From contig OZ219747.1 of the NCBI GenBank assembly GCA_964291265.2, positions 2,240,001 through 2,304,000 on the forward strand: a stretch of 64,000 bases of DNA, written 5' to 3'. Under the pieces are notes generated by a model. That model saw only the letters and a list, made by a program, of their open reading frames with translations. It was not told the origin of the DNA and did no database searches. Origin of the DNA: Alphaproteobacteria bacterium. Lineage in GTDB: Bacteria > Pseudomonadota > Alphaproteobacteria > SP197. A program made the translations under genes and the position numbers. Shown in pieces: positions 18,269 to 55,283 of this stretch. The first letter of the stretch is position 1. The number at the start of each line of letters is the position of its first letter.

Positions 18269-18300
18269 TGCGGCGTTGAGGAACCAAAGGGAGGGAGTTC

Positions 18301-21372: not shown

Positions 21373-21398
21373 CCACGTCCGTCACAAGGAGACCACTC

Positions 21399-22260: not shown

Positions 22261-22475
22261 CCGCCGCAACCGCAACGCACGCAGCCTCTTCGCCCAGCGC
22301 AACAGAAACCGTCAGCTCTCCAGCCTCGAGATCGTCCCGCCCGACGAACCACGACGAGGACGGAGAACGCCAGAACAAGACCCCGCGCAAAAGCCTGAAG
22401 CTCCCCTCCCACATCACGTTCCACAAACGCCGAACGCCAGAAAACGCCGACCGGAACGACATCGTCAACGTCAAT
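22150..22475 (+). pseudogene. Degenerate, internally deleted duplicate of the Toprim gene
   Basis: Colinear similarity to ~20775-20975, then jumps to ~21220-21340. Confidence 0.75.
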
Positions 22476-37376: not shown

Positions 37377-39812
37377 ATGAATTCCCACGCACGTGTGGTC
37401 GTGATCGGCGGCGGTGTCGTCGGAGTCGCCACGCTCTATCACCTCGCCAGGAAAGGCTGGAGCGACGTCGTGCTCGTCGAGCGCCGTGAACTGACCTCCG
37501 GTTCGACCTGGCATGCCGCGGGCCTGTTGCCGCTCTTCAACATGAGCTACTCGGTGGGCCAGGTTCACAAGTATTCGGTCCGCTTCTACCAGGAACTGCA
37601 GGAAGAGACCGGACTGGATGTCGGGTTTCGCAAGGTCTCCAACATCCGCCTGGCCATGAACCGGGACCGCATGGACGAGTATCACCAGTACGCCGGCGTC
37701 GCCGAGACCATCGGTGTCGAGGTGAGGTTCCTGTCACCGGGGGAGGTCGCGGAGATCTGGCCCCTGTGCAACACCGAAGGCCTCGTCGGAGCCATCCAGC
37801 ATCCGCAGGACGGCTACATCCAGCCGGCCGATCTCACCCAGGCGCTGGCCGCCGGAGCACGCAACCGAGGCGCCGATATCCATCGCAACTGCGCCGTCAC
37901 GGGCCTCGAACGGAACCGGTCCGCAGAATGGTGCGTCACCACGGATCATGGATCCATCACCTGCGAACACGTGGTCAGCGCCTCGGGCAGTTTCGCCCGC
38001 CAGGTGGGCGCCATGGCTGGTCTCGATGTTCCGGTCATTCCGGTGGAGCACCAGTACATCGTCACCGAACCCCATGAGGCCCTCCAGAAGCGTCGGGCCG
38101 ATGGTCTGCCCGAACTGGGCGTGCTGAGGGAATCGGACGGCTCCTGGTATATGCGCGAGGAGAGGGCGGGGTTCATTCTCGGACCCTACGAGACCGGGGC
38201 CCCGGCGTGCTATGTCGACGGTCCGGCCGATGACATGGAGTACGAGCTCTTCCAGGAGGACCTCGACCGCCTGGCGCCGCACATCGAGTCGGCGATCAAC
38301 CGGGTGCCGGCCTTTGGCGAGGTCGGTGTCAAGCAGGTCTACAACGGGGCCATCTGCTACACGCCCGACGGCTCACCCATCATCGGGCCTGCCTGGGGCG
38401 TCGAGAACTTCTGGCTCAACGAGGGCCACAGCTTCGGCATCACGGCTGCTGGAGGAGCAGGCTGGCAACTCGCCGAGTGGATGGTCGACGGCGAACCCAC
38501 CATCGACATGCTGGGCGTCGACCCGCGCCGCTTCGGCGACTACGCCACACAGTCCTACCTGGTGGCGAAGAACGAGGAAGCCTATGCCAACGTGTTCACC
38601 ATCCACTATCCCGACGAGGAGCGGCCGGCGGCCCGCCCGCTGCGCCAGGCGCCCTCCCATGACCGCCTGAAGGAGCTTGGCGCCGTGTTCGGCCAGAAGT
38701 TCGGCTGGGAACGGGCCAACTGGTTTGCGCCGTCCGGCATGGCGCAGGAGGATCACTGGTCGTTTCGTCGCTCGCGCTGGTTCGAACCGGTCGGCAACGA
38801 GGTGGAGAATGTCCACAACAATGTCGGCGTCCTCGACATGACGGCATTCGCCAAGTGCCGGGTCGCCGGGCCGGGGGCAGAAGGATTCCTCGAGGCCATG
38901 GTGGCCAACCGGTTGCCCCGGCGCATCGGCAGGGTGGGTCTCGTCCACGCGCTCACCGAGCGCGGCGGGGTCCATTCCGAATTCACGGTGTTCCGGGAGT
39001 CGGCGGAGAGCTTCTACGTGGTTTCCGCCGGCGCCCTGCAGCGCCTTGATCACGACTGGCTCACCAGGCACATGCCGTCCGACGGGTCCGTCACCTTCAC
39101 CGACATCACCAACCAGATGGGGGTTCTGGTGCTTGCCGGCCCGCGTTCGCGGGACCTGCTCTCGGGCCTGACCCGCGACGATCTCTCGAATGAGGGCTTT
39201 CGCTGGCTTTCCGGGCGCTGGATCGATGTCGGCCTGGCGCCGACGCTCGCCCTGCGCATGAACTTCGTCGGTGAACTGGGATGGGAACTGCATCACCCGA
39301 TCGAGTACCAGAATCACATCTTCGATGCCCTCATGACCGCGGGCGCCGAATTCGGCCTGAGGCCCTTCGGCATCCGGGCGATGGAGGCGATGCGCATCGA
39401 GAAGTCCTATCGCATGGTGGGCCAGGAGCTTTCCATCGAGTATGCGGCCCTGGAAAGCGGCCTCGATCGTTTCGTGCGTCTCGACAAGAACGACTTCAAG
39501 GGACGCGCCGGGCTGGTGACATGGCGGGAACGCGGATTCGCCAACCGTTTCGTCACCATGGTGGTGCACGATGTCGACGACGCCGATGCCCTGGGCAACA
39601 ATCCGCTTCGCCGCGATGGCGAACTTGTCGGCCGGGCCACGTCGGGTGGCTACGGCTTCCGGCTCGGCCAGTCCCTGGCGCTGGCCATGGTACGCCCGGA
39701 CGCCGGCGAACCGGGAACCGACCTGACCATCGACATCCTCGGCCGCACCTTCCAGGCCACCGTCTGCGGGGAATCGCCCTTCGATCCGGACAACGAACGG
39801 CTCCGCACCTGA
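37377..39812 (+). CDS. GcvT-family FAD oxidoreductase (dimethylglycine dehydrogenase-like)
   Basis: VIGGGVVG, LTSGSTWHAAG, YTPDG, GWERANWF, GELGWELH, C-terminal GcvT fold. Confidence 0.9.
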   Translation: MNSHARVVVIGGGVVGVATLYHLARKGWSDVVLVERRELTSGSTWHAAGLLPLFNMSYSVGQVHKYSVRFYQELQEETGLDVGFRKVSNIRLAMNRDRMDEYHQYAGVAETIGVEVRFLSPGEVAEIWPLCNTEGLVGAIQHPQDGYIQPADLTQALAAGARNRGADIHRNCAVTGLERNRSAEWCVTTDHGSITCEHVVSASGSFARQVGAMAGLDVPVIPVEHQYIVTEPHEALQKRRADGLPELGVLRESDGSWYMREERAGFILGPYETGAPACYVDGPADDMEYELFQEDLDRLAPHIESAINRVPAFGEVGVKQVYNGAICYTPDGSPIIGPAWGVENFWLNEGHSFGITAAGGAGWQLAEWMVDGEPTIDMLGVDPRRFGDYATQSYLVAKNEEAYANVFTIHYPDEERPAARPLRQAPSHDRLKELGAVFGQKFGWERANWFAPSGMAQEDHWSFRRSRWFEPVGNEVENVHNNVGVLDMTAFAKCRVAGPGAEGFLEAMVANRLPRRIGRVGLVHALTERGGVHSEFTVFRESAESFYVVSAGALQRLDHDWLTRHMPSDGSVTFTDITNQMGVLVLAGPRSRDLLSGLTRDDLSNEGFRWLSGRWIDVGLAPTLALRMNFVGELGWELHHPIEYQNHIFDALMTAGAEFGLRPFGIRAMEAMRIEKSYRMVGQELSIEYAALESGLDRFVRLDKNDFKGRAGLVTWRERGFANRFVTMVVHDVDDADALGNNPLRRDGELVGRATSGGYGFRLGQSLALAMVRPDAGEPGTDLTIDILGRTFQATVCGESPFDPDNERLRT

Positions 39813-39823
39813 TCACAGGCCGC

Positions 39824-39979
39824 GCAGGACGAAAGACCCATCCCGGGCCACAGCAAGGACTGTCGACACGTCAAGCGTCGCCTGCCCATCCCCGATGTCG
39901 GCATCGGCCCTCCGGCTTCCTGCACTGAAGCCCGGCCTTCGTCCAAACCGGACCATGTCCCAAGTCCCAACCGGCGGCA
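39824..39979. repeat. About 150-bp non-coding segment shared downstream of both ankyrin genes (copy 1)
   Basis: High similarity to 51874-52020. Confidence 0.85.
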
Positions 39980-40074
39980 TCAGTCGTAGCGCAGGTCGTT
40001 CAAACGCCAGTAGGCCTTACTCCCCTTCAGTTTGTCGTTCTCTTCAATCATGTTCCATGGGGTCTGGCCAGCCG

Positions 40075-40995
40075 CAGTCCGAGCCTCATGATCCGCGCCC
40101 CAATCAAGCAACACTCCGACCACTTCCGGACTGCTGCTGAATGCTGCCGCCCAGTGAAGCGGGGTCCAGCCATCCTGGTCGCGCGCTTCAAGGTCCGCGC
40201 CCCGGTCGAGCAACAGCCCAACCACTTCCGAACTGCTGCTGTATCTCGCCGCCCAGTGAAGCAGGGTCCAGCCACCCTCGTCGCGCGCTTCAAGGTCCGC
40301 GCCCCGGTCGAGCAGCAGCCCAACCACTTCCGGACTGCTGCTGAATGCTGCCGCCCAGTGAAGCGGGGTCCAGCCACCCTCGGCGCGCGCTTCAAGGTCC
40401 GCGCCCCGGTCGAGCAACAGCCCAACCACTTCCGAACTGCTGCTGTATCTCGCCGCCAAGTGAAGCGGGGTCCAGCCACCCTCGGCGCGCGCTTCAAGGT
40501 CCGCGCCCCGGTCGAGCAACAGCCCAACCACTTCCGAACTGCTGCTGTATCTCGCCGCCAAGTGAAGCGGGGTCCAGCCACCCTCGGCGCGCGCTTCAAG
40601 GTCCGCGCCCCGGTCGAGCAACAGCCCAACCACTTCCGAACTGCTGCTGTATCTCGCCGCCCAGTGAAGCGGGGTCCAGCCACCCTCGGCGCGCGCTTCA
40701 AGGTCCGCGCCCCGGTCGAGCAACAGCCCAACCACTTCCGAACTGCTGCTGAATGCTGCCGCCCAGTGAAGCGGGGTCTGGCCACCCTCGGCGCGCGCTT
40801 CAAGGTCCGCGCCCCGGTCGAGCAGCAGCCCAACCACTTCCGGATTGCTGCTTGCTCCCGCCGCAGCATGAAGCGGGGTCCAGCCACCCACGGCGCGCGC
40901 TTCAAGGTCCGCGCCCCGGTCGAGCAGCAGCCCAACCAATTCCGGATTGCTGCTTGCTCCCGCCGCAGCATGAAGCGGGGTCACGCCATCCTGGT
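40075..40995. repeat. 102-bp near-identical tandem repeats x9 (ankyrin coding)
   Basis: Repeating ...TTCAAGGTCCGCGCCCCGGTCGAGCA(A/G)CAGCCCAACCACTTCCG... unit. Confidence 0.93.
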
Positions 40996-41182
40996 CGCGC
41001 GCATTCGGGTCAGCGCCAGCGTCAAGACAACGGGATACGTCCACCAACGTGGCTCGGTTGAAGAAGTCATAGGTGTTCCAGTCGGAACAGGTGAGCGCCT
41101 TCAGGCAGATTGATGATGCGTTGATCGGGCAATTTAGTGGACATGAGCTTTCGCGCTGCGCTTGGTTTGCGGTTCTTGAAGG

Positions 41183-42046
41183 CTACTTGGAAGGGAAGGC
41201 TGGTGTTCGTGCCTTGAGGACGTCGTTCCAGTCTTTGTGTCCGTCTGGGGGTCTCATGCGGAGAGCTCTTGGGTCTTGGCTGACGAGGCGCTCGGCGGCC
41301 TGTTCTCCGACGGGATCGGCGTCGAAGGCGACGAGGATGCGCTTTGGCGTCCAGGCTTCGGCCCATGTTGGGAGACGGTAAGCGATGCCGGCGGTTGACA
41401 GGATCACGGTAGCGGATTGCCGACATTCCTTGAGGCACCATGCGGAGAGGGCGTCGATGGCGCTTTCGGTGATGATGATGGTGCGTGGCATGGAGCGGTC
41501 CACGGGGATCCAGAAGCTGCCGGCGGCCTTGCGTGATCCTCGCGCCATGGCTCTGTACTGCTTTCCGTCTGCGTTGGGGACGGTACCGACGATCTCGGCG
41601 CCGGAGAGGTCTCTTTGTGCGTTGGTGCATGTGAAGACGGCGTTTCTGCGTTCGTCGGCGGCGACGAGGCCGTGCTGTCGGCAAGCGTCCAGGCAACGGT
41701 CTGGCAGGCGGCGGTCATGGGCGAGGTAGTGGCGTACGGCGTGCCAGGTTTCCTCGCAGTGCGTTGGTGTTCTCGGCCCCTTGCCGCCGGAGCGTGCGGT
41801 GAGGAGTGCGACGGCGTCGTTGAAGCTGCAGCGGTGTGCATGCATGACGAGATCGATGGCGCCGCCACCGCCGGACTGGGTGATGTGGTCGAACCAGCGT
41901 TGTCGGTTGACGCTGATGACGGATCCGTGGCGCTTGAAGCGTCGCGGGTCGCGCGGGTCTCTTCGGTAGCCGAGCCGCAGGGCGAGTGGTTCGAGGGGCT
42001 GGTTGCGGATGTCATCGAGATGCTGATTGTCCCAGGACCGGATCAT
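41183..42046 (-). CDS. Toprim-domain primase-like protein (DUF3991/Toprim type)
   Basis: WFDH..GGGGAIDLVMH, YLAHDRRL, NAVF, IITESAIDALS, STAG, AFDADPVG, KDWND. Confidence 0.82.
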   Translation of the reverse strand: MIRSWDNQHLDDIRNQPLEPLALRLGYRRDPRDPRRFKRHGSVISVNRQRWFDHITQSGGGGAIDLVMHAHRCSFNDAVALLTARSGGKGPRTPTHCEETWHAVRHYLAHDRRLPDRCLDACRQHGLVAADERRNAVFTCTNAQRDLSGAEIVGTVPNADGKQYRAMARGSRKAAGSFWIPVDRSMPRTIIITESAIDALSAWCLKECRQSATVILSTAGIAYRLPTWAEAWTPKRILVAFDADPVGEQAAERLVSQDPRALRMRPPDGHKDWNDVLKARTPAFPSK

Positions 42047-42180
42047 GGTCTGTCGAGCCTCCTGCGTGGTGGACGGGGGGTGGTTCCCGTTGGCGGTTCC
42101 CACCTGAACTCCCAGGGTGAACGGGAACCGGGAACCGGGAACCGCCTGGCGTCGGGGCGTTTTGCGCCTGGTTGTTGCGG

Positions 42181-43128
42181 TCAGGCTTTGGCGACGCGAT
42201 AGGCACCGGGACCGTCCTGTGCGACACGTCCTTCCTGGACGAGCTTGGCTAGAAGCGTGGCGACGGTCGTGTTCCGTGTTGGGACGCGGTCCCGGACCTG
42301 GCGCAGCGAGAGCGGGGCATCGGCGTCGGCGAGGACCTGGACGATGCGCTGTTCGGGGGTTGGCGGCTGCGGCCTGGCGCCGTCGGGTTCCTGTTGCCGC
42401 AGCTGCAGGGCGGCTCCGTTGCCGCTGTCGGTGAGTTCGATGTCGAGATCGGCGAGTCCGGGTGCGGCGCGGTGTTCGACGGTCATGAGGATGGTTTCGT
42501 GGCGGCGCCGCAGGTAGAGGTTGCTGTCGCCCCATGCGTGCAGCTCGCTGCTTCCGCGCAGGGCCTGTCCGGGCCGGCTGGCGGCGCTCTTGCGTGCGTG
42601 GTGGACGAGCAGCACGGCGGCGCCGGAGTGTCGCTGCACGTCGCGCAGGAAGCCGAGGATCGGCGCGATCTCGGCGACGGCGTTTTCATCGACGCCGTGC
42701 AGGCGGACGAGGGGGTCGAGGATGAGCAGGCGGGAGCCGTGACGCTCGACGGTCTCGAGCAGGCTCTGGCGGTCGGTTGGGTGGTCGAGGCGCAGTGCGG
42801 GGACGTCGATGACGGCGATGTCGAGGGTGTCGAAGTCGGCGCCGGCTGCGGCGGCGATGCCCTGGAGGCGGCGTCGCACGATGTGGCCGGCGTCCTCGGC
42901 GGCGAACATGAGCACCGGTCCGGGGTGCACGGCCGGGAAGCGGCGCAGACAGGGGACGCCGGCGGCGACGGCGACGGCGAGATCGAGGGCGAGGAAGGAC
43001 TTTCCGCACTTGGGTTCGCCGCCGATGATGCCGACGGCCTCGCGGCCCCACAGGCTGTCGACGAGCCACTGCCCCTCGGTTGGCCGGTCCTCGAGTTCGG
43101 CCGGGCTGCGGGTTGGCAGGCCGATCAT
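42181..43128 (-). CDS. AAA_25 / RepA-like helicase-type ATPase with a C-terminal HTH-like region
   Basis: WLVDSL, GGEPKCGKS Walker A, FAAED, LLILDPL Walker B, LLVHHARK, LRGSS. Confidence 0.85.
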   Translation of the reverse strand: MIGLPTRSPAELEDRPTEGQWLVDSLWGREAVGIIGGEPKCGKSFLALDLAVAVAAGVPCLRRFPAVHPGPVLMFAAEDAGHIVRRRLQGIAAAAGADFDTLDIAVIDVPALRLDHPTDRQSLLETVERHGSRLLILDPLVRLHGVDENAVAEIAPILGFLRDVQRHSGAAVLLVHHARKSAASRPGQALRGSSELHAWGDSNLYLRRRHETILMTVEHRAAPGLADLDIELTDSGNGAALQLRQQEPDGARPQPPTPEQRIVQVLADADAPLSLRQVRDRVPTRNTTVATLLAKLVQEGRVAQDGPGAYRVAKA

Positions 43129-43955
43129 CGTGTGCGCCTCGGCGGGATGGGTTCGCCCCAGGTTTCGAGGAAGAGCTTTTCGTCGAGCACCTCGCGGTCG
43201 GTGTCGAGGGCGACAGCGAGGAGGTTGTCGGCGAGGATGGTCAGGGAGCGCGGATTGCCGTCTGCATGGACGACGAGGGTCTCCTTGAGGCCGGGGGTCA
43301 TGAGGCCTGGATTGCCGGCGGCGTCGAGCAGGTGGTCGAGCAGGCGGAGCAGTTCGTCGGGTTCGCAGCGCGTCATGACGAGGCGTTGACGGACCCGCGA
43401 GGCGACGGCTTGCAGGTCGGGGCTGTGCAGCTTGGCGAGCAGGCGGCTGTCGCCGGCCAGGACGACGCTGAGGATGGCGCGCGAGTCGAACTCCGTGGAG
43501 GCGAGCAGGCGCAGTTCGGTGAGCACGGCCTGCGGCATCTCCTGGGCCTCGTCGACGAGCAGGACCGGGCGCATGCGGGTGTCCTCGAGATGGGTGAGCC
43601 AGCACTCGCGCAAGGCCTTGAAGCCGGCCCAGAGGTTCCGGCGCAGGGTCGTGATGCCGAAGAGGTCGGTCATCTCGCGGTAGAAGTCTGCGGTGCTCGA
43701 CGAGGGATGGGCGAGCACGGCGACGTCGAGGCCCTCCGCGGTCTCGAGACGCTCGTCGAGCAGGCGCAGGGCGACGCTCTTGCCGGTGCCATGCTCGCCG
43801 GCCACCACGGCGAAGCCGCCCTGGCGCACGAGCTGACGCTCGATCCTGCGGCAGAAGCTGTCGATCGCGGGCGTTGCGAGAAGGCCCTCGACCGGCAGGT
43901 CGGCGGCGAAGGGGTTCCACTTGAGGCCGTAATGGGTGAGGTGTTGGCGGTTCAT
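43125..43955 (-). CDS. ExeA-family AAA ATPase (transposition helper)
   Basis: YGLKWNPF, GEHGTGKS, LLVDEAQ, ELRLL, VLAG, GNPR; ATGA-coupled on both sides. Confidence 0.88.
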   Translation of the reverse strand: MNRQHLTHYGLKWNPFAADLPVEGLLATPAIDSFCRRIERQLVRQGGFAVVAGEHGTGKSVALRLLDERLETAEGLDVAVLAHPSSSTADFYREMTDLFGITTLRRNLWAGFKALRECWLTHLEDTRMRPVLLVDEAQEMPQAVLTELRLLASTEFDSRAILSVVLAGDSRLLAKLHSPDLQAVASRVRQRLVMTRCEPDELLRLLDHLLDAAGNPGLMTPGLKETLVVHADGNPRSLTILADNLLAVALDTDREVLDEKLFLETWGEPIPPRRTR

Positions 43956-44776
43956 GACATGTCTCCCTGATCGTTGTTGTCCTTGCCTTCGTCGTTCGGG
44001 CCGGCCTCCTTGCCGAAGGGCAACCATGCCGGGGGCAGGCCGGTGGCGTCCTGCTCGTCGCGGAGGCGCTTGAGCAGCGGCGCCGGCCCGGTCTGTGGCT
44101 TCACCTCGTCGTCTTCTCTCCGGCGCCCGGTCCGGCGGCGGAGCCCCTCGGCGTTGCGAGACTTGTCCACCGGACGCAGGGTCGAGATGCGGTCCCCGGT
44201 GCGGCCGTCGACCATGTCGATGCCGGAGAGGTCCCAGCGGGCGACGCGCAGGTCGATCTCGCGCAGGTGGCGCCACGGCGCCGGCAGTTGATAGCGGACA
44301 CTCGCCACCGTCACCGTGGCGTCGGAGCGTCGCACCTTGCGACGCATGTTGATGGCTGCATAGAACGGCGGGATTTCGGCGATTTGCCGCGCTTTGTCAG
44401 GGTCGTGTTTCTTCCCTGTTGTCAGGTCCTATTGTCACGTCCTGTTGTCGTGGGTTCAGTGTTCGGCTGATTGTCTCCCCGAGCGCCGCCCGTTTTCCTA
44501 TTGTCGTTTTGGTCCGGTTCGGATTGTTCCGTCGGCCTCTGCTTCGGTCTTGGTGACGGTTGCCGGGAGGGTTTCGGTTCCGAGGCACTCGCGGGATCGT
44601 CTGTTTTCCCTGTGGTCTGGGTCGTGTTGTCCGGTCCCGGGGCGGCGTTTTTGCCGCCGCCCCGGGTGGATGCTAGATCGGCATCGAAAGAAAGAGCGAT
44701 GCGATGCCGGGCAGAGTTGTGATGACGCCCCCCGGCGCAGCACCCGGACGAGCCGGTCACGGGGGACCGAACTCCC

Positions 44777-45307
44777 GTGTATTGTCGAGCCATTTTGCGT
44801 CCGGGTCCACCCCCGCTCTCGAGACGGATCGTGTGCACGACGGGACGACTGTTCAACTGCAAGCGGTGTCAGCGGCAGGTTGTTCTCTGCCGGTCGTGTG
44901 ACCGGGGGCATGTGTATTGCTCCGATGAGTGCAGGGAGCGGTCCCGGATCGAGCGGCGCCGCGCGTCGCGTCGTCGCTACCAGAGCACGCTGAGGGGCCG
45001 TGAGACGGGCCGTCACCGCCAGCGGCGTTACCGGCTCCGCAAGGCGGAGGAGGCGCGTGCGTTGAAGGCCAGGGCGGCGATGCTTGCCGAGATCATGGGC
45101 ACGCAGACGTCTGCTGTGGTGCTGCTTGGCGACGTTCCGGCGGTGTCTGGAGACGCCGGTTCCGAAGAAATCGTTACGGACCACCCTTCCCGACTGCTGC
45201 CGACCTCCCTACCTGCGGTTGTGAAGGCGCGAGAGCGACGCGAATCGCCGCTTCGGTGCGCCCGGTGCGGACGGGTCGTGACGCATGTGGTGCTGAGGGA
45301 CCTGTGA
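44777..45307 (+). CDS. Cys-rich hypothetical protein (copy 2; start uncertain)
   Basis: Near-identical to 17738-18268. Confidence 0.7.
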   Translation: MYCRAILRPGPPPLSRRIVCTTGRLFNCKRCQRQVVLCRSCDRGHVYCSDECRERSRIERRRASRRRYQSTLRGRETGRHRQRRYRLRKAEEARALKARAAMLAEIMGTQTSAVVLLGDVPAVSGDAGSEEIVTDHPSRLLPTSLPAVVKARERRESPLRCARCGRVVTHVVLRDL

Positions 45308-45339
45308 TGCGGCGTTGAGGAACCAAAGGGAGGGAGTTC

Positions 45340-46833
45340 ATGGCGATCGACGAGGACACGCGGGCGACGATCGTGCGGCTGTCGCGGGCCGAGGGCTGGG
45401 CTGTGGGGACGATTGCCCGGCATCTCGGCGTGCACCACGGCACGGTGACGCGGGCGCTCAAGGCGTCGGGGCAGGAGCGGCGGCCGCGGGCCAAGCTCAT
45501 CGACCCCTTCGTTGCCTTCCTCGGGGAGCGTCTTGAGGCGTCGCCGGACCTTCCGGCCAGCACGCTCTGGCGACAGGTCGTGGCCCTGGGCTACCGCGGC
45601 GGCGAGGATCACTTCCGTCACGACCTGCGCCGCCTCGGGCTGAGGCCGGTGAAGAGGCCCGAGCCGTCGCTGCGGCTGAGCTTCCTTCCGGGCGAGCAGG
45701 CGCAGGTTGACTGGGCCGAGTTCGGGAAGGTCCGCATTGGCCGGGCGGAGCGCAGGCTCATGGGGCTTCTCGTCACCCTCAGCTACTCGCGCCAGACTGT
45801 CCTGAGCCTGTTCCACGACGCGCGGATGGCCAGCTTCCTGCAAGGCCATGTCGAGGCTTTCGCGGCATTCGGGGGTGTGCCGCGGAGGCTTCTGTACGAC
45901 AACCTGAAGAGTGCCGTGGTGACGCGCCGCGGCAAGGCGGTCACCTATCATCCGATGCTGCTCGGCCTCGCGGCCCACTATGCCTTCGAACCGAGCGCCG
46001 CCTGGCCCAGGAGCCCGCAGGAGAAGGGCCGCGTGGAACGCCGTGTGCGCTTCGCGCGCACCGGGTTCTTCGCCGGGCGCGACATCACGGTCCCGCTCGG
46101 CGAGCTCAACGCCGCGGTTCGGGAGTGGTGCTTCGGCGCCGCCGCGGAGCGGCCCTGGCCGGACGACGACAGTCTCCTGGTGCGGGACGCCTTCGCCCGG
46201 GAGAGGGAGCACCTGATCGTCCTTCCCGTCGACCCCTTCCCGCATCACGAGGTCCGCCCGGTGCGCATCGACAAGACCTGCCACGCCCGCTTCGACACCA
46301 ACGACTACAGCGTTCCGGGTAGCTTCTCCAAGGCCCTGCTGACGCTGGTCGCCGACCGCGACGAGGTCCGCATCCTCGACGGCGCCGACGAGGTCGCGCG
46401 CCACCGACGCTCCTACGACAGGAAGCAGGCCGTCACCGATCCGGAGCATGCCAGGGCGATCGCCGCGGGCAAGCGGCGGGCCCGCTCCATGAGCGTCCGC
46501 GACCGGGTCCTGCGCACCGTGCCGCGGGCCGAGGAGATGCTGGCGCGCGCCGGGACCAACGGGCGCAACGTGGCCTCCTGCGCCCGGATGCTGGAGACGC
46601 TTCTCAACGCGCACGGCGCCGACGCTCTCGACCGGGCTGTCGCCACGGCGCTGGAGCGCGGCTCGTGCCACCCCGAAACCGTGCGCGTCATCATCGAAGA
46701 GCGCCGCCGGGAGCAGGGCCTGCCGCCCCTCAGCATCGCCGACGACGGCCGCGGCGGCCGTGGCACGACGCCGCGGGGGACCGCTCTCGACGCCTACGAC
46801 AGGCCCGAAGCCAGCGCCAGGAACAAGACATGA
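45340..46833 (+). CDS. istA: IS21-family transposase IstA (copy 2)
   Basis: Near-identical to 18301-19794. Confidence 0.93.
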   Translation: MAIDEDTRATIVRLSRAEGWAVGTIARHLGVHHGTVTRALKASGQERRPRAKLIDPFVAFLGERLEASPDLPASTLWRQVVALGYRGGEDHFRHDLRRLGLRPVKRPEPSLRLSFLPGEQAQVDWAEFGKVRIGRAERRLMGLLVTLSYSRQTVLSLFHDARMASFLQGHVEAFAAFGGVPRRLLYDNLKSAVVTRRGKAVTYHPMLLGLAAHYAFEPSAAWPRSPQEKGRVERRVRFARTGFFAGRDITVPLGELNAAVREWCFGAAAERPWPDDDSLLVRDAFAREREHLIVLPVDPFPHHEVRPVRIDKTCHARFDTNDYSVPGSFSKALLTLVADRDEVRILDGADEVARHRRSYDRKQAVTDPEHARAIAAGKRRARSMSVRDRVLRTVPRAEEMLARAGTNGRNVASCARMLETLLNAHGADALDRAVATALERGSCHPETVRVIIEERRREQGLPPLSIADDGRGGRGTTPRGTALDAYDRPEASARNKT

Positions 46834-47531
46834 GCGAGCTCAGGGAGCGTGCCCGGGCGCTCGGCCTCCACGGGCTCGTCGAACGCTGGGACGAGGTCGC
46901 CGGGACCGCATGGATCGAGGAGGTGGTCAGCGGCGAGGAACAGGCCCGCAGGGCCCGCAGCCACGAGCGCCGCCGCGCCGCGGCGCGGCTGCCCGCCTTC
47001 AAGCCCCTGGCGGACTTCGACTGGACATGGCCGCGCGACATCAGCCGGGCTCATGTCGAAGCGCTCCTCGGCCTCGGCTTCGTCGACCGTGCGGACAACG
47101 CCGTGCTCGTCGGCGGGCAGGGCACCGGAAAGACCATGATCGCCGCCAACGTGGCGCACCAGGCCCTGCTGCACGGCCACACCGTCCGCTTCGAGAAGGC
47201 GCCGGAACTGCTCGAGGCACTCGCCGAGACCGTCTCGCGCAGCGAGCTGCGCCGCCGCCTCGCGATCCTCGCCAGGCCCCGCCTGCTCGTCCTCGACGAA
47301 ATCGGCTACGTGACCCTCGAAAGCCACCATGCCGACATCCTCTACGCCATCGTCTCGCGGCGCTATCAGCGCCGCTCGACCATGGTCACGACAAGCCTCG
47401 CCTTCGCCCAGTGGGACCGCGTCTTCCCCAGCGCCTCCGGCATCGCCGGCACCGTCGACCGGCTCATGCACGACGCAACCCTCATCTCCATCGACAGCGA
47501 CTCCTGGCGGCTCAGGCGTGAAACCCGATAA
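46830..47531 (+). CDS. istB: IS21-family ATPase IstB (copy 2)
   Basis: Same protein as 19791-20492. Confidence 0.93.
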   Translation: MSELRERARALGLHGLVERWDEVAGTAWIEEVVSGEEQARRARSHERRRAAARLPAFKPLADFDWTWPRDISRAHVEALLGLGFVDRADNAVLVGGQGTGKTMIAANVAHQALLHGHTVRFEKAPELLEALAETVSRSELRRRLAILARPRLLVLDEIGYVTLESHHADILYAIVSRRYQRRSTMVTTSLAFAQWDRVFPSASGIAGTVDRLMHDATLISIDSDSWRLRRETR

Positions 47532-48411
47532 ACCCCGCCGCGTCGACTTCGACGCCGTCAAGCGCATGCCGTTCGAACGCATCGCCGCCGACTGGGGATA
47601 CGTCCGCGACGAACAGGCCTCGACACGCGCCAACCCCGTCCTGTGCGCACCCGGCCTGCCGAAGCTCGTCACGAAGTGCCTCAACAACGGACACTGGGTC
47701 TACTTCAACACCCAGAACGATGAAGACAACGGAACCGTCATCGACTTCATGCTCAACCGCGGACTGGCCTTCGCCGACATCTGCACCCGCTTCACAGCAC
47801 CCGACACCGCGCCACGCGACTTCCGCAGCCTCTGGGCCGCGGCAACGCCCGATGCGGCCCCGGACTGGCTCACCGGGCGCGGCATCCTCCCGGAGACCCT
47901 CGACACCTGCCGCCCCCTGGTCCGCCGCGACCACAACGGACGCGTCCTCTTCGCCCATCGCAACAGGAAGCGAAAGCTCACCGGCTTCGAGATCGGTCCC
48001 CCCGACGGACCGAAACGCTTCGCCACCGGTGGAACCCGAAGCCTGTTCGCCGTCCGCGCCGGAACCGCCGCGGACCTCGAGGCCCTCGTCATCACCGAAA
48101 GCGCCGTCGACGCCCTCAGCCTGGCCCAGATCGACCAATGTCCCCCCAGCCACGCCTTCCTCTCCACCGCCGGGGCACCCTCGCGAAGACAGCACGAACA
48201 GATCAGCCTCGCCGCAAGCAGCCTGCCCAACGTCAGGACCATCGTCCTCGCCCAGGACCACGACGAGGCCGGAGAGCGACAGGCCGAAACCCTGCGCAAA
48301 AAGATGAAGCTCCCCTCCCACGTCTCGTTCCACAGACGCAGACCGCCGGAAAACGCCGACTGGAACGACGTCGTCAACGCCAGGACCAAAGAACCACAAG
48401 CGAGATCATGA
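47518..48411 (+). CDS. Toprim primase-like protein (copy 2)
   Basis: Near-identical to 20479-21372. Confidence 0.8.
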   Translation: MKPDKPRRVDFDAVKRMPFERIAADWGYVRDEQASTRANPVLCAPGLPKLVTKCLNNGHWVYFNTQNDEDNGTVIDFMLNRGLAFADICTRFTAPDTAPRDFRSLWAAATPDAAPDWLTGRGILPETLDTCRPLVRRDHNGRVLFAHRNRKRKLTGFEIGPPDGPKRFATGGTRSLFAVRAGTAADLEALVITESAVDALSLAQIDQCPPSHAFLSTAGAPSRRQHEQISLAASSLPNVRTIVLAQDHDEAGERQAETLRKKMKLPSHVSFHRRRPPENADWNDVVNARTKEPQARS

Positions 48412-48437
48412 CCACGTCCGTCACAAGGAGACCACTC

Positions 48438-48728
48438 ATGCCCCTCACGCCCGCCGAAAAGCAGCGGCGATACCGGGAACGGCGCAAGGCCGGCATCCCT
48501 CCCGTCCACACCCCAAAGCATCGTGACCGGCGCTCGCGACCGCAACGCTGGAACGACGCCGTGGCCGAACTGCGCGCCCTGCAGGACGAATGGCGTGACC
48601 GCCTCGACAGCATCCCCGAAACCCTCCGTGACACGCCTTACGGAGAACGCCTGCAGATCGTCGCCGATGCCGACATCGAGGCCCTCGAGGACATCGAACC
48701 GCCACGCGGCTACGGAAGGGATACGTGA
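48438..48728 (+). CDS. Small hypothetical protein (copy 2)
   Basis: Near-identical to 21399-21689. Confidence 0.65.
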   Translation: MPLTPAEKQRRYRERRKAGIPPVHTPKHRDRRSRPQRWNDAVAELRALQDEWRDRLDSIPETLRDTPYGERLQIVADADIEALEDIEPPRGYGRDT

Positions 48729-50822
48729 TCCCGCAAGACCCTTGAACGCGGTCACGCGTTACCATCCAGGAATGAGAACGTCTCACCCCGACGCGCCGCT
48801 CAGCCTCCCCGGGAAACTCCCGGGCCGTCCAAACGACACCGCATCACGAGACTGCCGCAGCCGCTGGCCGGACTGGCTTACAGGTCGCAGCATCCGCCCG
48901 AAAACACTCAACGCCTGCCGCACCCTGCAGGACGAATGGCGTGACCGCCTCGACAGCATCCCCGAAACCCTCCGTGACACGCCTTACGGAGAACGCCTGC
49001 AGATCGTCGCCGATGCCGACATCGAGGCTCTCGAGGACATCGAACCGCCACGCGGCTACGGAAGGGACACGTAATCTCGCAAGACCCTTGAACGCGGTCA
49101 CGCGTTACCATCCAGGAATGAGAACGTCTCACCCCGACGCGCCTCTCAGCCTCCCCGGGAAACCCCCGGGCCGTCCAAACGACACCACATCACGAGACTG
49201 CCGCAGCCGCTGAGCCGCAGCAACGCCCGATCCGCCGCCGGACTGGCTCACAGGTCGCAGCATCCGCCCGAAAACACTCGACGCCTGCCGCACCCTGCGC
49301 CGCCGCAACCGCAACGCACGCAGCCTCTTCGCCCAGCGCAACAGAAACCGTCAGCTCTCCAGCCTCGAGATCGTCCCGCCCGACGAACCACGACGAGGAC
49401 GGAGAACGCCAGAACGAAACCACGCGCAAAAGCCTGAAGCTCCCCTCCCACATCACGTTCCACAAACGCCGAACGCCAGAAAACGCCGACCGGAACGACA
49501 TCGTCAACGTCAATGCAAGACCAATGGGATCCAACAATAGGCAGAAAACAAAGACCGGGCGGACCTTCGTCCAATGCCGCACGTTCTCCTGTCGTGGTCA
49601 CCCACTCACACGATCAGCGCCCAAAAGAGCGGTTCTCCGCCAATATCCCGCCGTTCTAAATCGCCGCCGACAACGCACCTTGATGCGGAAGGCGGCCCGG
49701 AGTTCGCTGCTGTCCGGGCATGTCCGCGAGGCGTCCTCGCTGTCGATCACGCGCCTGAGCGGCGTGACCCCCGTCTCGCGGTGTACGCGGCGGTGATACT
49801 CGCGCTCGAACCAGATGACGGTGGCGTCGTTCAGGTCCTGCAGGGTCAGGGTCTCGACGTTCTCGAGCATCGCCATCAGGCGGCCCTCGACCTGGGCGAA
49901 CAGCACCTCCTGCTTGCCGTTCTGGTACGGGCTGCGGACAAGCGTGTGGTGGTGCAGCACGCCGAGGGCGTGCAGTCCCTCCTGCACCTCCCCGGCCGTC
50001 ATCGCCGATCCGTTGTCGGTCAGAAGGGACCGCGGCAGCCCTCGCTTCATGAAGGCCTGGCTGATGCCGTGAACGAAGATCTCCGTGGTCTCCCCGAGAT
50101 ACCACTGCATGTGGCAGACGAGACGCGAATGGTCGTCGATGAAGCTGAGCAGGATCGGCGTCCTCCACTCCCCGGACGGCGTCAGCACGCGACAGGTCCG
50201 CGCATGGTGGAAGTCGGCGTGCCACAGGGCATGGCTGCGCGAGACCTCGTAGCTCAGCACCTCGCGCCCCTCGACCGCAGGCCGCTCCGCTTCACCACCG
50301 AACTTCCGCTGCCGCCGCCGCCGCTCCAGGCCCGCCGAACGCATGACCCGGGTCAGCGTCGCATAGGACGGCATCGGCCCGAGCGAAGGGTCGGCCTCGA
50401 CCAGCGCGCAAAGGTTGTCGTGGTGGAGCTGAACCGACCACGTGGGGTGCGCCCTGTACTGGTCGCGCAAGGCCGCCATCAGCAGGGGCGAGACGCTCCG
50501 CGCACGACCGGCGTCGCAGCGCACCCGACGGCGCAGCGCCCGCACCGGATCCCGGTCGGCCGACCGCGCCTTGTAGTACCAGCGCTCGATCGTCGACACC
50601 GAGAACCGGATCGTGCCGCCCCTGACGGGATGCTCCCAGTCCCGCCGCGACAGCCGTTGAAGCTCGGCCCGCAGACCCCCCTTCGGCGGCGGCGACGCCA
50701 GCAGCGGGCCAACCACCGCAAAGCGCAGCCGCGTCCAGGCGTCCCCGGCGTCCGCTTCGTCCTTCGTCACCACGACAGCCTTCCTCCCTCGTCGTCCCAT
50801 GGGAGGAAGGCCCTATACGGTC

Positions 50823-51437
50823 CTATGTCATCGCACTACAGGCACTCTCTGCGGGCGGCGACAGACCATCGACGATCCTGCAGAAGCCGGTCCACGGCAT
50901 GAGCCAGACCAGGCTCCGCAGAAGGCGCGATCGAAACGATCCGCCGCGCATCAAGCGCACCAGGGCCACAAGCGGAGGCTCGTCCGCCTCCACCGCCAGA
51001 TCGCCACGTTTCCAGCGCCACGCCGCCGTCGCCGGGAACCTCTCCCGCCACCATCGACGCCACCGGCCAAGCGTCCTCTCCGGGATGCCAGACATGCGGC
51101 TCGCCTTCGCCAGGGGAACACTGCCGCACAGAACCAGGAGGCTCGCAGCCAGGTATACCGGCGCCGCACGGAACCTCCGGCCGAAGAAGCGCACCGAGGG
51201 CGGAGTCGTCCGGCTCCTGCACTCAGCACAGCAGAAGCTGAAACGGCGGTTGTCGCCGCGAAGAGCAGGCGCAAGCGCGTGCGGCTTGCGCGGATACCGC
51301 GCGCTGTGAAGACGACCGCCGCAATGCGGGCATCCCTCCAGGCGGCAGCGCTCCGCCTCGGCCGCATCAATCCTCTCAAGGAGAGGCCAGACATGAGCGC
51401 AGGAAAGTATGGGACCCGGGAAGGAAACGTGCGACAT
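50823..51437 (-). CDS. Zn-finger/HTH accessory protein preceding the transposase (DUF6431-like)
   Basis: CPHCGGRLH, RFSFCCAECRSRTTP, RTLGRWRRWW. Confidence 0.7.
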   Translation of the reverse strand: MSHVSFPGPILSCAHVWPLLERIDAAEAERCRLEGCPHCGGRLHSARYPRKPHALAPALRGDNRRFSFCCAECRSRTTPPSVRFFGRRFRAAPVYLAASLLVLCGSVPLAKASRMSGIPERTLGRWRRWWRERFPATAAWRWKRGDLAVEADEPPLVALVRLMRGGSFRSRLLRSLVWLMPWTGFCRIVDGLSPPAESACSAMT

Positions 51438-51873
51438 TGACTGGCCTCCGGTGATCTCACCGTCACGGAGACAAGCCCCTCGGCCGACTTCTTGCAAGTC
51501 GGTCGAGGGGCAATCACCCCAGACCAGCAGACAATTCAAGCAAAACCGACGGAATCCACGTCAAAAATCGCGCAAACGCTTAACAGGGCGCTGCCGAGAT
51601 CGGAGCGGTGCAGACTGACACGGCGCACGCCGTTGCCAGGATCAGTGCTACCTGCATGATTCGCACGGCGTGACCCCTCCATGTGCTTGACCGTATGTAT
51701 CATCGAATGAGACGGAGTGGCCACAGGAAGCGGTCACGTTTCACTGGGGAGTGATTCTCTTGTGGTCGGCTTTCGTTGCAGCGATGATCTCTTGGCGCGA
51801 GCGTGACCTGCGCCACCGGCCGGTTGTCGTTCATGCGGGTGCTTTCATCGGCCGCGGCGGTTCAGGCGCAGAC

Positions 51874-52020
51874 GCAGGGCGAAAGACCCATCCCGGACCA
51901 CAGCAAGGACTGTCGACACATCAAGCGTCGCCTGCCCATCCACGATGTGGGCATCGGCCCTCCGGCTTCCTGCACGAAGCCCGGCTTCGTCCAAACCGGA
52001 CTATGTCCCAACCGGCGGCA
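51874..52020. repeat. Shared 3' flank of the ankyrin genes (copy 2)
   Basis: High similarity to 39824-39979. Confidence 0.85.
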
Positions 52021-53457
52021 TCAGTCGTAGCGCAGGTCGTGCAAACGCCAGTAGGCCTGGCTCCCCTTCAGACCGTTGTTCTCTTCAATCAGGTTCCACG
52101 GGGTCTTGCCATCCAAAGTCCGAGCCTCATGATCCGCGCCCCGGTCAAGCAACAGCCCGACCACTTCCGGATTGTTGCTATATGCCGCCGCCATGTGAAG
52201 CGGAGTCTGGCCACCCTCGTCGCGCGCTTCTAGGTACGCGCCTCGGTCGAGAAGAGTCCTGATGGAATTCGAGGTACCGTGGCCTGACGCTTCGTGCAAG
52301 GGTGTGAGACCGCCTTCATTGAGGGTGCGGATGTCGGCCCCCGCGTCGACGAGAGCGCCGATGGTTTCGGGTGTTCCGTCTCTTGCTGCGTGGTGGAGGG
52401 GTGTGCAGCCCTCTCCGTCCCTCGCGTTGACTTTTGCCCCCGCGTCTACAAGGATCATAACAGTCTCCGGCGTGCGCAGAGCAGCCCAGTGCATGGGCGT
52501 CCAACCGTATTCGCTAATCGCGTCAGGATCCGCGCCCGCATCGAGCAAGGCCCTGACGGTGTCTGGATTGCCCTGAGCGGAGGGAAGCATGGAGGCAATA
52601 TCATCCATCTCGGCAGGCGTTGCCTTGTGCACAGGCGCCAAGCCGACACTGTAGGTAGCGTGGATATCCGATCCCGAAGCCAGAAGGCCACGGGCGGCCT
52701 CCGGGGAACCAAACATCGTCACGCCGAACGCCACCGCGAAATGCAGGGGCGTGAGGCCTTCTTTTCCCCTCGCGTGGAGGTCGGCTCCGGCGTCAGCGAA
52801 GGCCATGACGATTTCCGGGGTACGCAATGCCGCCCAGTGCAAAAGTGTCCAGCCGTCTTCGTCACTCACGTCGGGATCCGCCCCCGCTCCCAGTAGGGCC
52901 CGGGCGGTTTCGGTGTTTCCGTAAATCACTGCGTAATATAGCGGCGGCAAGCCATTCCCGCCTCTTGCGTTGGGATCCGCTCCCGCGTTCAGAAGGATTT
53001 TGACAGTCTCCGGTGGGATCGGCCCGGCTATGTGCAAAACCGTGTATCCGCCGTGGTGTGTCGCGTTGATGTCGGCTCCCGCGTCCAAGAGGATTCTGAC
53101 GGTCTCCGGTGCGCCTTTCCCGACAGCGAACACCAAGGGTGTTATCCCATCGATCGCAGCATGGATGTCCGCCCCAGCATCCACGAGGGCACTGACGATC
53201 TCGGGTGTGCCAAGTGCTGCCGCGTAGTGTAGGGGCGCAAATCCACCTTCATTGTCATTCCGCGCATTCGGGTCAAAGCCGGCGTCGAGACAACGGGAGA
53301 CATCCTCCAACGTGGCTCGGTCAAAGAAATCAGACGTGTTCCAGTCCAGACAGGGGACCGCCGAGACCGGAGCGGTGCAGACTGACACGGCGCACGCCGC
53401 TGCCAGGATCAGTGCTGCCTTCATGCTTTGGACGGCGAGTTCCTTGGTGGATGTCAT
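52021..53457 (-). CDS. Signal-peptide ankyrin-repeat protein, intact
   Basis: Hydrophobic leader, CLDWNTSDFF cap, roughly 11 divergent TPLH repeats, C-terminal AYWRLHDLRYD shared with the paralog. Confidence 0.92.
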   Translation of the reverse strand: MTSTKELAVQSMKAALILAAACAVSVCTAPVSAVPCLDWNTSDFFDRATLEDVSRCLDAGFDPNARNDNEGGFAPLHYAAALGTPEIVSALVDAGADIHAAIDGITPLVFAVGKGAPETVRILLDAGADINATHHGGYTVLHIAGPIPPETVKILLNAGADPNARGGNGLPPLYYAVIYGNTETARALLGAGADPDVSDEDGWTLLHWAALRTPEIVMAFADAGADLHARGKEGLTPLHFAVAFGVTMFGSPEAARGLLASGSDIHATYSVGLAPVHKATPAEMDDIASMLPSAQGNPDTVRALLDAGADPDAISEYGWTPMHWAALRTPETVMILVDAGAKVNARDGEGCTPLHHAARDGTPETIGALVDAGADIRTLNEGGLTPLHEASGHGTSNSIRTLLDRGAYLEARDEGGQTPLHMAAAYSNNPEVVGLLLDRGADHEARTLDGKTPWNLIEENNGLKGSQAYWRLHDLRYD

Positions 53458-53477: not shown

Positions 53478-54118
53478 GGATTATGTCAAGATCAAGGTAT
53501 CCCGATGTTTCCGCACCATGCTCTATCCCGAAGTTCCAGAGCCGATCAGGCGCAAGTATGTGATATGAATGACATTCGATGGATCTCAGAGGCGTCTGAC
53601 TGGGTACACTACGGCTTGACGCCGAGGAGTTTGAGTGCTCCGCTCTGGAGCGGCGTGGGCCGCGTGGTGACCTGGAAGGGCCCGGCGCCCGCAAGGTGGA
53701 GCGCCACGGTGTTGCGGGTGATGGTGCGCTTTTTGACCTTTCCGACTTCGCGCCGGGGGCTTGCGGAACAGGATGGCGGGAGGAGGGGATCGGCTGAGGA
53801 GGGCTTTGATGTACATGGTTACCGTGCATAGGCGCACCACGGACGCATATCAAACACAAGATGCATTCGCACATGGGTACACTGTGAAGCCTGATGGATC
53901 CGACAAATAGCGCAAAATCAGCGAGTTGTTGTGAAGATCAGCAGGAAGTCATCTGGAACTTCGGTCTAACGCAAAAGCATGGTGCCGGGCCTCAAGCTTC
54001 CTCACCTCCATGGAGGCACTCGGCTACAACCCTCTCGTCGCCATCCAGATCGCCCTAAACGGAAAGGCCGTAGACATCACTACGGCCAACCAGACCCGAA
54101 CAAGGGGTGAACAGTTAC
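53478..54118 (+). pseudogene. IS66 3' remnant with right TIR, interrupted by a mini-IS1634
   Basis: VKIKVSRCFRTM...AWCRASSFLTSMEALGYNP; GGGGTGAACAGTTAC end. Confidence 0.8.
53528..53964 (-). mobile_element. Internally deleted (MITE-like) IS1634-family derivative
   Basis: 13-bp perfect TIR CCGAAGTTCCAGA; retains transposase N-terminal (MYI...SPPPAILFR, GKVKKRT) and C-terminal (TRNTV...TRPTPLQ..ALKLLGV) fragments; imperfect TSD TCTATC/TCTAAC. Confidence 0.7.
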
Positions 54119-54399
54119 CGCTCTCCTCAAGTTTCCGTAGGGTCCGCGTCGTCGTTCGATCCGCTGCACTCGCAAACGAACCTTGCCGCCTGAGCGGCGG
54201 CCGGCGTCGACCCGGTCCATCTGCCACATGCGCCGACAGAACATCGAGTCGCGGAGCATCGATGTCCCGCACCGTCTCGCGGGCTGACATCGCTCCGGCC
54301 TCCCGCCCGGCGAGGACGCAAAGCGCTGTCTCGGACGACCGTTGATGTGCCGGGCGAACTTCGTTTGGATTGAGATCCGAACGCTGCCGCGCGCTGTGC

Positions 54400-54531
54400 T
54401 CGTGGTGTGCGGCCTCCTTTGCGGCCATCTGCATCAGCGCCGCGATCCTGCGCGCCGTCATCGGCGATACCGGAAAGATCGACCGGCGGCCGGTCCGGAA
54501 ACCGGGCGACGCGTGTCAGGTTGACGCCCAT
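54400..54531 (-). pseudogene. Partial duplicate of the HTH antitoxin 3' end
   Basis: MGVNLTRVARFPDRPPVDLSGIADDGA vs MGGNLTLVVRFPDRPPVELSGIADDGA. Confidence 0.7.
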
Positions 54532-54572
54532 CCTCCGCGGCCTGGCGGTCGGTCATACACCGGCTTCGCCTC

Positions 54573-54818
54573 TCATGGCGTGCCGCCCGGGGCGCGGGCC
54601 ATATCGATCGCGATTCCCGCCAGAGCGGCCATCGCGGCGATGATCGCGGCGGCCTGAACCATGAGGGCGCGGTAGAGCGTTGCCGTGACGCGCGAGTCCA
54701 AGGCGCCTAGGTCCGCCTTGGTGGCAAGATCGCCCTCGCCGACGCGGATCGCTTCGGCAACGGCCTCGGCCTGCTTGCGGTTCATGCCTGCGCTGATCTG
54801 CTCGCGGTCGGCGGTCAT
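54573..54818 (-). CDS. Small DUF1640-like coiled-coil/TM protein
   Basis: AGM..KQAEAVA, LATKADL, C-terminal hydrophobic helix. Confidence 0.55.
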   Translation of the reverse strand: MTADREQISAGMNRKQAEAVAEAIRVGEGDLATKADLGALDSRVTATLYRALMVQAAAIIAAMAALAGIAIDMARAPGGTP

Positions 54819-54926
54819 GGATCGTGTTCGATTTCAGCGGCGGGATGGATGCTACCTTCGGCGATTGTGCCGCTCGCCGTCAAGCGACCCGGCCGGGCGT
54901 TTCCGGCCGCCTGACGCGCGGCGTGC

Positions 54927-55283
54927 TCATGGTCCGCGGTCACCCGCGTCAGCGCCCTGATCCGGCGCGCCGTCATCGGCGATGCCGGAAAGCTCGACCG
55001 GCGGCCGGTCCGGAAACCGGACGACGAGCGTCAGGTTGCCGCCCATCGCCTCGACCGTTCGGCGCAGCGTGGACAGCAGCAGGTCGCTGCGCCGCTCCAG
55101 CCGGGAGATGGCGTCCTGGCTGATCCCGAGTTCGCGCGCCACGCTCGCCTGGGTGAGCCGGCGCGCCTTGCGCAGCTCGCGCAAGGTCATCTCCTCGGCC
55201 ATCAGCTCGGCCGCCCGCCGTTCGATCCTCCGGCGGCGTGCGGGCAGCAGGTCCGCCATCACCTCGTCAAGGCTCACGGTCAT
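54927..55283 (-). CDS. XRE/HigA-type HTH antitoxin
   Basis: LRELRKARRLTQASVARELGISQDAISRLERRSDLLLSTL. Confidence 0.85.
   Translation of the reverse strand: MTVSLDEVMADLLPARRRRIERRAAELMAEEMTLRELRKARRLTQASVARELGISQDAISRLERRSDLLLSTLRRTVEAMGGNLTLVVRFPDRPPVELSGIADDGAPDQGADAGDRGP

Follow-up and report, generated by a model that had tools for sequence, protein, structure and literature searches.

The replication step of Mu is credited to host PriA-type restart proteins. More generally, DNA synthesis on replicative or copy-out intermediates of transposition is normally credited to proteins of the host, as in the available excerpt on IS911 (PMC2909936). The pairing of a DDE transposase with an AAA+ ATPase is common to IS21, Mu, and the Tn7-like TnsB/TnsC systems (PMC10293859, in part), and is also found in Tn6049 from Cupriavidus metallidurans CH34, which occurs in pHS87a of Pseudomonas aeruginosa as well. 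Tn6049 measures 3.5 kb, is present in 12 copies, and has an ATPase gene named gspA (PMC2864759, in part); its core has been named, but the published accounts, in the parts at hand, do not describe its mechanism. The subject of this study is a relative of Tn6049 in a stretch of 64,000 nucleotides, referred to as the window, from an Alphaproteobacteria bacterium (GenBank assembly GCA_964291265.2, contig OZ219747.1, forward-strand positions 2,240,001 to 2,304,000). This relative, called here the outer element, is interrupted by a nested IS21-like element and carries behind its ATPase gene a helicase gene, a palindromic site, and a primase-like gene. These parts are proposed to form a swappable module at the distal end that starts, in cis, the copying step of transposition, a proposal to which we give an even chance. 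No description of a helicase-site-primase module was found in the literature searched (subscription papers, supplements, ISfinder, and TnCentral lay outside its scope); two Tn7 surveys, one of them PMC10293859, do not mention it in their parts on primase and helicase, and the excerpt of an IS21 structure paper (PMC10122671) contains nothing on replication, nor does that of PMC13192273 add anything. The features of the outer element and its insertion site, in window coordinates, are:

41087–41091, no strand: target duplication ACAGG, left copy, read from the sequence
41092–41150: downstream end, TGAGCG; two degenerate boxes of TTGATGG type lie about 18 and 42 bases inside it, and relatives and Tn6049 have such boxes too
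41183–42046, minus strand: DUF3991-Toprim primase-like gene, 287 amino acids
42083–42146: palindromic site, in which GTTCCC repeats and their inverted counterparts, GGGAAC, flank a short centre; a candidate for an origin or for a site of helicase loading
42181–43128, minus strand: RepA-like superfamily-4 (SF4) helicase with a C-terminal winged helix, 315 amino acids (AAA_25, E 3e-36)
43125–43955, minus strand: ExeA-like AAA+ ATPase (ExeA/AAA_22), 276 amino acids, 53% identical to the Tn6049 ATPase
43952–44346, minus strand: DDE transposase, C-terminal part, severed by the IS21-like insertion
44347–49672, plus strand: nested IS21-like element, 5,326 bp, TG...CA ends, ACGCA duplication
49678–50800, minus strand: DDE transposase, N-terminal part (505 amino acids in intact copies), 49% identical to the Tn6049 transposase
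50823–51437, minus strand: Cys-rich open reading frame (ORF) with a helix-turn-helix (HTH), 204 amino acids, 46% identical to the first gene of Tn6049
51523–51582: upstream end, TAAGCG read inward, in all six full copies
51583–51587, no strand: target duplication ACAGG, right copy, read from the sequence
39980–41091, minus strand: downstream part of the ankyrin-repeat gene, which starts beyond 51582 and is split by the insertion

Helicase, palindromic site, and primase

The closest described relative of the helicase is RepA from the IncQ plasmid RSF1010, which is its top match in sequence (E 3e-13) and also in fold, followed by DnaB. The fold comparison used a model built from 85 sequences, with a predicted local distance difference test score (pLDDT) of 93, which supersedes an earlier one from a shallow alignment (pLDDT 54) and places the winged helix at about residues 258–312. 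In the 85 sequences, K43, E78, D138, R191, and R220 (Walker A, the catalytic glutamate, Walker B, and two arginines) are invariant. By its RecA fold and these conserved residues the protein belongs to superfamily 4 (RepA/DnaB), and a hexameric ring and 5'-3' unwinding are predicted. It differs from RSF1010 RepA in the low identity (22%), in the added winged helix, in having no separate iteron-binding RepC, and in a partner primase of Toprim type, which the RSF1010 primase RepB' is not. A clamp-binding motif in the helicase tails (8 of 96, vs 2.6% in shuffles) is too weak a signal to use.

Directly behind the helicase stop codon lies the palindromic site, which the earlier note had overlooked. 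In a second helicase subfamily, described below, the site takes the form GTTCCGTTCC-22 bases-GGAACGGAAC and stands behind the primase gene when one is present. Among loci with 1,200 bases downstream, some window-type ones being copies of one element, it accompanies the helicase in 27 of the 30 that are window-type and in 15 of the 23 from the second subfamily, and was found in none of six helicase-less elements and none of three phage loci. The search pattern occurs at eight places in the 4.83-Mb genome, six of which are the six copies of the outer element.

The repeats vary together with the recognition helix, as judged from 23 distinct window-type elements. Helices starting with RPA, RAT, or RTA go with GTTAC repeats (9/9), those starting with RNA or RNS with a 6-base GTTCCC period (7/7), and those starting with RHK, RHT, RNE, or RNT with a 7-base period (seven elements). 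The seven RNA/RNS elements form one winged-helix clade (support 94/93), while their helicase cores lie apart, and the nearest neighbour has the same repeat type in 20/23 cases on the helix vs 15/23 on the core. One second-subfamily element has four boxes that all read GTATC, and its helix is changed too. Across lineages the site accompanies the helicase, and the repeat tracks the winged helix by these sequence comparisons. Behind one helicase (locus L189), at least two full copies of the GTATC site variant are found. The palindrome was also considered as an intrinsic terminator and rejected as such, with a T-rich tail in just 7 of 54 sites.

A comparable layout is known from Staphylococcus aureus pathogenicity islands (SaPIs) and phage-inducible chromosomal islands (PICIs). 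The SaPI Rep has short iterons behind its own gene, and the Pri-Rep-ori arrangement of these islands shares with the outer element a helicase with a C-terminal winged helix, opposed short iterons directly behind it, and a neighbouring primase (PMC9371898 and bioRxiv 10.64898/2026.10.17.759575, both in part). The differences are that SaPI Reps are superfamily-3 (SF3) or MCM-like AAA+ proteins whereas the helicase here is a RecA-fold SF4 protein, that the site spans about 60 bp without an AT-rich centre instead of the roughly 300 bp of a SaPI origin, and that the outer element is a DDE transposon, not an integrase island. The shared layout is also what would be expected if the excised circle replicated itself like a small plasmid or satellite, raising its copy number and its chance of transfer between hosts without being needed for strand transfer. 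Such replication would agree with the records of near relatives in Alphaproteobacteria, Gammaproteobacteria, Chloroflexota, Actinomycetota, and Acidobacteriota, and replicating circles have a precedent in TnGBS-type elements. Nevertheless, this explanation is unlikely, given that the helicase is on none of 72,556 plasmids (E 1e-5 with a second-subfamily query, E 1e-15 with the window query), that the genome contains no junction of abutted ends, that the element has no transfer genes, and that an always-active origin in many chromosomal copies should harm the host.

The primase-like protein has the Toprim residues E194, D242, and D244 invariant in 61 homologues, and gives weak matches to T7 primase and DnaG. 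The Toprim glutamate and DxD are as in DnaG/T7-type primases, and primer synthesis is putative. A search for a zinc-binding domain or its ligands gave no CHC2 match in the window protein; CHC2 is present in the second-subfamily primase P0368 (E 2e-11), so that two types of primase, DUF3991-Toprim and CHC2-DnaG, stand beside the helicase. Plasmid DUF3991-Toprim proteins, free or fused to MobV, have the same domain pair at 27–37% identity, but the transposon Toprims form a group of their own (93/86). The earlier note saw the Toprim as the recruited distal gene. That gene is indeed there, but the conserved partnership is that of helicase and site, as DUF3991-Toprim stands behind the helicase in just 7 of the 18 genomes that bear one, with one genome left unscored. 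Toprim without helicase is found in a distant transposase group, in five genomes of the host's genus.

Other occupants can take the place of the primase or of the whole module. A hairpin-rich block fills the primase position in 10 of 14 helicase-only elements, four of them seeds, vs none of 13 primase-bearing ones. The block is about 170 bases long (L083:12385-12560, and likewise in nine further elements with helicase only) and is matched in part at the end of an IS21 element (L257); it belongs to no Rfam family (best E 0.42), has just short plasmid matches, and is not in this genome. In 4/4 helicase-less Tn6049-type loci (L128:3716-3928, L130, L132:6309-6524, and L133:7263-7478), a small ORF behind the ATPase ends in acidic residues plus F, and two of these also have QxDLF. 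We take the acidic tail to resemble that of the single-stranded DNA-binding protein (SSB), and QxDLF a clamp-binding motif. One slot behind the ATPase is thereby occupied by helicase and site, two primases, the hairpin block, or the acidic-tail peptide, all of which seem to point to fork assembly; this is the main functional argument for the module.

A role without any fork has to be weighed against it. The ATPase-winged-helix protein might have an architectural or regulatory role through binding to the palindrome, or might remodel or migrate the strand-transfer product, with the primase as an optional extra. RadA and RAD51-paralogue folds also score highly against the helicase model, the site is short, GC-rich at its centre, and close to one end, and the primase is frequently missing. 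Since RepA and DnaB hold the top fold ranks, and two different primase types stand beside the helicase along with the other replication-linked occupants of the slot, this forkless role appears rather doubtful.

Kinship with Tn6049, copies, and spread

The core of the outer element is Tn6049-like in gene content, with a Cys-rich ORF, a DDE transposase, and an ExeA/GspA-like ATPase. The locus on pMOL28 (L132), whose ends agree with those printed for Tn6049 in the consulted part of PMC4739549, shares these three genes and their order, with identities of 46%, 49%, and 53%. TTGATGG-type boxes, a 4-5-bp duplication, and a multi-copy, promiscuous habit are further likenesses, and the Tn6049 ATPase nests within the same ATPase clade. 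In the short imperfect inverted repeats the agreement is partial, as one end reads TG but the other TA instead of CA. Contrary to the outer element, which is 5,160 bp long after subtracting the nested insertion and has one TA end, Tn6049 in pMOL28 is 3,517 bp long and carries no helicase or primase, with a 71-amino-acid acidic-tail ORF in place of helicase, site, and primase. The transposase matched 21 plasmid records, of which 18 are from Cupriavidus. Profile matches and sequence bear out the gene list of the earlier note (Zn-finger ORF, DDE, ExeA, AAA_25, and Toprim) and its ATGA coupling: such overlaps join transposase to ATPase and ATPase to helicase. The transposase of an intact copy matches rve (E 3e-10), and the Cys-rich ORF is DUF6431-like by model features, as a lead only.

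Relatives of the outer element have TG...CA ends with repeated boxes, as do IS21, Mu, and Tn7-like elements, from which the outer element differs by its upstream Cys-rich ORF. Its genes gave no match to the IS21 models NF033546 or NF038214. Membership of IS481 was rejected, with 109.5 bits for the N-terminal part against an NF033577 cut-off of 224 and with five genes instead of a single one, and so was membership of the Tn7-like/Tn5053 group, as TnsA, TniQ/TnsD, and a resolvase are absent and all five ORFs inside the ends are assigned otherwise. Structure searches with the transposase alignment and the ATPase returned just retroviral integrase cores and weak matches. A tree of ATPases from 26 chosen elements shows four or more deep groups.

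The ends proposed in the earlier note from the ACAGG duplication and the in-frame restoration of the ankyrin gene are correct. The element opens with TGAGCG at 41092 and closes with CGCTTA at 51582, flanked by ACAGG on either side; the halves of the ankyrin gene are in phase once ACAGG is counted singly, and both match the paralogue at 52021-53457. The genome contains six full copies, no two of which have the same 5-bp duplication. Intact copies, which the note had suggested looking for, number four, uninterrupted and with all five frames open, and differ pairwise by 15–30 bases; one of them is at C2:460796-465955. Two of the six, including that of the window, have been struck by the IS21-like element, and between the window copy and the intact one at C2:47062 there is a single-base difference. 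The TA end had been read as a defect, yet it is not a sign of inactivity because all six full copies, including the four intact ones, have TG...TA ends. The note's other reason for inactivity, the broken transposase, applies to the window copy only.

The ends of relatives read TGAGCG...CGCTCA, with common inner boxes. Among 52 parsed copies of relatives (two copies were passed over), 29 have five-base and 16 four-base target duplications, and seven have no matching duplication; most insertions are simple. The outer element has spread recently and moves as one unit, its ends being fixed and its duplications 4-5 bp long. No end-to-end circle joint is listed in the contigs of four sequencing runs, which drop rare variants. 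A joint skipping 5,165 bases is present in the contigs of runs X2 and X3; it may be an empty allele or another copy of the repeated flank, and polymorphism is not claimed from it. Older copies of helicase and primase, now diverged, have left remnants in the same genome at C1:266683-267507 and C2:2223321-2223587.

The earlier note envisaged a broader class of replication-assisted transposons. Helicase-bearing relatives do occur across GTDB and metagenome loci, in several transposase/ATPase lineages, with the replication role as a prediction. In the best 80 of 582 GTDB transposase loci, from 21 genomes, the helicase stands behind the ATPase in 76 loci and 18 genomes, so that relatives lacking helicase and Toprim, the outcome the note had named as adverse, are not the rule. 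The four loci without it are two broken copies and two more distant elements. These 80 loci are not independent, since they are the closest matches, many are copies of one element, and the hosts are mostly related. The distribution is patchy, as the helicase was found in 1 of 400 other Pseudomonadota genomes sampled and in 3 of 41 around that genome (G110). In the locus of this single match, at 44% identity, the transposase and ATPase are of a third kind; behind them come the helicase and then a primase of DnaG type whose CHC2 finger is intact.

An alignment headed by the 44% match defines the second subfamily, for which the best 80 of 570 metagenome loci were counted. An ExeA-like ATPase lies directly upstream in 65/65 loci that extend 400 bases in that direction; of the 46 loci that extend 500 bases downstream, 35 have a gene or piece of a CHC2-DnaG primase there. 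Further transposase/ATPase lineages with this helicase and primase are seen at L143:119-5077 (G110) and L144-L223, and in L160, L165, and L170 the primase is reduced to a zinc-finger piece. The window helicase is 67–72% identical to helicases beside transposases that are just 25–27% identical to its own, and in a helicase tree of 21 of the 26 elements plus two phage proteins, a clade formed by the Tn6049-like group is rejected (approximately unbiased (AU) test, p 4.4e-12). Together with the deep ATPase groups, this shows that the module moves between lineages.

The same data bear on whether helicase, site, and primase are passengers acquired from plasmids or phages, with no part in movement. 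Members of the Toprim family are frequent on plasmids, on their own or as fusions to a MobV relaxase, and Tn6049 moves without any of the three parts. Phage relatives of the helicase also exist; a single-sequence query gave no viral locus, an alignment query gave three, at 37–42% identity, and phage records reach 25–35%. Two of the phage proteins (L225 and L226, 39–42%) lie just upstream of terminase-like genes and have no site. The recent plasmid or phage fragment feared in the earlier note finds no counterpart here, with no plasmid match at the above thresholds and phage identity of just 25–42%. A profile search gave at least 150 helicase clusters (50% identity) at E below 1e-70, counted without gene context, and a passenger origin is not recent because of this number. 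Against passengers stand the transposon ATPase preceding the helicase in every testable metagenome locus, the gene coupling, the repeated exchange between deep lineages, and the selection on the genes. In six pairs, the ratio of nonsynonymous to synonymous substitution rates is 0.15-0.36 for the helicase, 0.29-0.38 for the primase, and 0.25-0.33 for the transposase, and by this measure helicase and primase are under purifying selection equal to that on the transposase. A passenger role is accordingly quite improbable.

Possible action of the module

In the proposed start of the copying step by the module, the transposase, with no TnsA-like or resolvase gene beside it, would nick the 3' ends alone and leave a branched intermediate. 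The winged helix would then bind the inverted repeats and load helicase rings, by analogy with SaPI Rep at its iterons, the primase would lay a primer, and a host polymerase would complete the copy, giving either a circle to be pasted in or a resolved cointegrate. Replicative excision of IS911 offers an analogy (PMC2909936, in part). Primase-less elements would use a host priming route, and helicase-less ones could recruit host fork proteins via primase alone or via the small acidic-tail peptide. The coupling of the helicase gene to the ATPase gene and the retained catalytic residues of helicase and primase support this reading.

A wider idea is held tentatively, as somewhat short of even. It sees a widespread class of bacterial DDE/AAA+ transposons with an interchangeable replication slot behind the ATPase, filled by a helicase that loads itself at an origin matched to it in sequence, by either of two primases, or by a peptide that imitates the SSB tail and a clamp-binding motif; by setting up forks of their own, such elements would no longer depend on the host's restart proteins, and an IS21 lineage would have arrived at this separately.

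Several observations weigh against the proposal. As for the site, 8 of 23 second-subfamily loci lack it, its search pattern was composed after both locus sets had been viewed (a stricter earlier one missed the GTTAC type), and helix and site are neighbours, so that linkage alone could yield their covariation. Its centre is not AT-rich, with a mean AT of 0.34 over 54 sites and 0.37 in the window, and it also folds as a hairpin (median z -3.7). As for the primase, the most numerous relatives (11 and 17 copies examined) do without it, the four intact copies differ in it by seven amino-acid-changing vs three silent changes, and the IS21 Toprim has lost one conserved aspartate in 2/3 related IS21 genomes. 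The 12 copies reached by Tn6049 without helicase or primase (PMC2864759, in part) imply that the family does not need the module. Simple insertions predominate in relatives, which cut-and-paste would give as well, and the abutted ends expected of a circle are missing from the genome. A minority variant in the X2 and X3 contigs has neither primase gene nor site (L001:1153-2081).

With a helicase, a candidate origin, and a primase of its own, and with natural variants missing each part, such a compact transposon in many copies makes the copying step directly testable by part swaps. The module may account for how these elements function in several phyla. It also provides a small SF4 helicase whose DNA-recognition code is a predicted one that varies in nature.

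The nested IS21-like element and its surroundings

The element that interrupts the transposase of the window copy belongs to the IS21 family, judging by IstA, IstB, TG...CA ends, and duplication. It contains:

44777-45307: Cys-rich ORF
45340-46833: istA (IstA 222 bits, cut-off 160)
46830-47531: istB (IstB Pfam E 5e-50; NCBIfam 190 bits vs a cut-off of 200, longer frame)
47518-48411: Toprim
48408-48728: small ORF
48919-49512 (end approximate): degenerate partial repeat of small ORF and Toprim pieces

Thirty full copies exist in the genome, 26 of them with a duplication and several nested in one another. The window holds a second full copy at 17314-22633, with a CTTGG duplication. Other copies of the small ORF occur elsewhere in the genome as well as in G005 (L046).

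The Toprim of this element is 28% identical to that of the outer element (E 3e-12), and the motifs pointed out in the earlier note are common to both. It also follows istB in three other genomes. The independent recruitment of one Toprim family by two transposition systems, which the note had inferred, is upheld by a tree of 31 proteins, where the IS21 Toprim groups with a plasmid subset (96/92), apart from the transposon Toprims. A single origin of the two was rejected, along with their joint clade (AU p 6.7e-5).

The surrounding region is rich in insertions, with a DruA-like ORF, a DDE_Tnp_1 transposase, and IS66 transposases at 703-1773, 4079-5965, 6347-7999, and 22485-23213. The ankyrin-repeat paralogue at 52021-53457, together with 51751-52050, has a similar leader and a downstream region like 39800-40100, as in a tandem duplication. 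Further on, at 54024-55283 and 55873-59118, there are repeated ORFs resembling HTH antitoxins, as well as a superfamily-1 helicase in fusion with a nuclease-like domain (AAA_12, MTES_1575).

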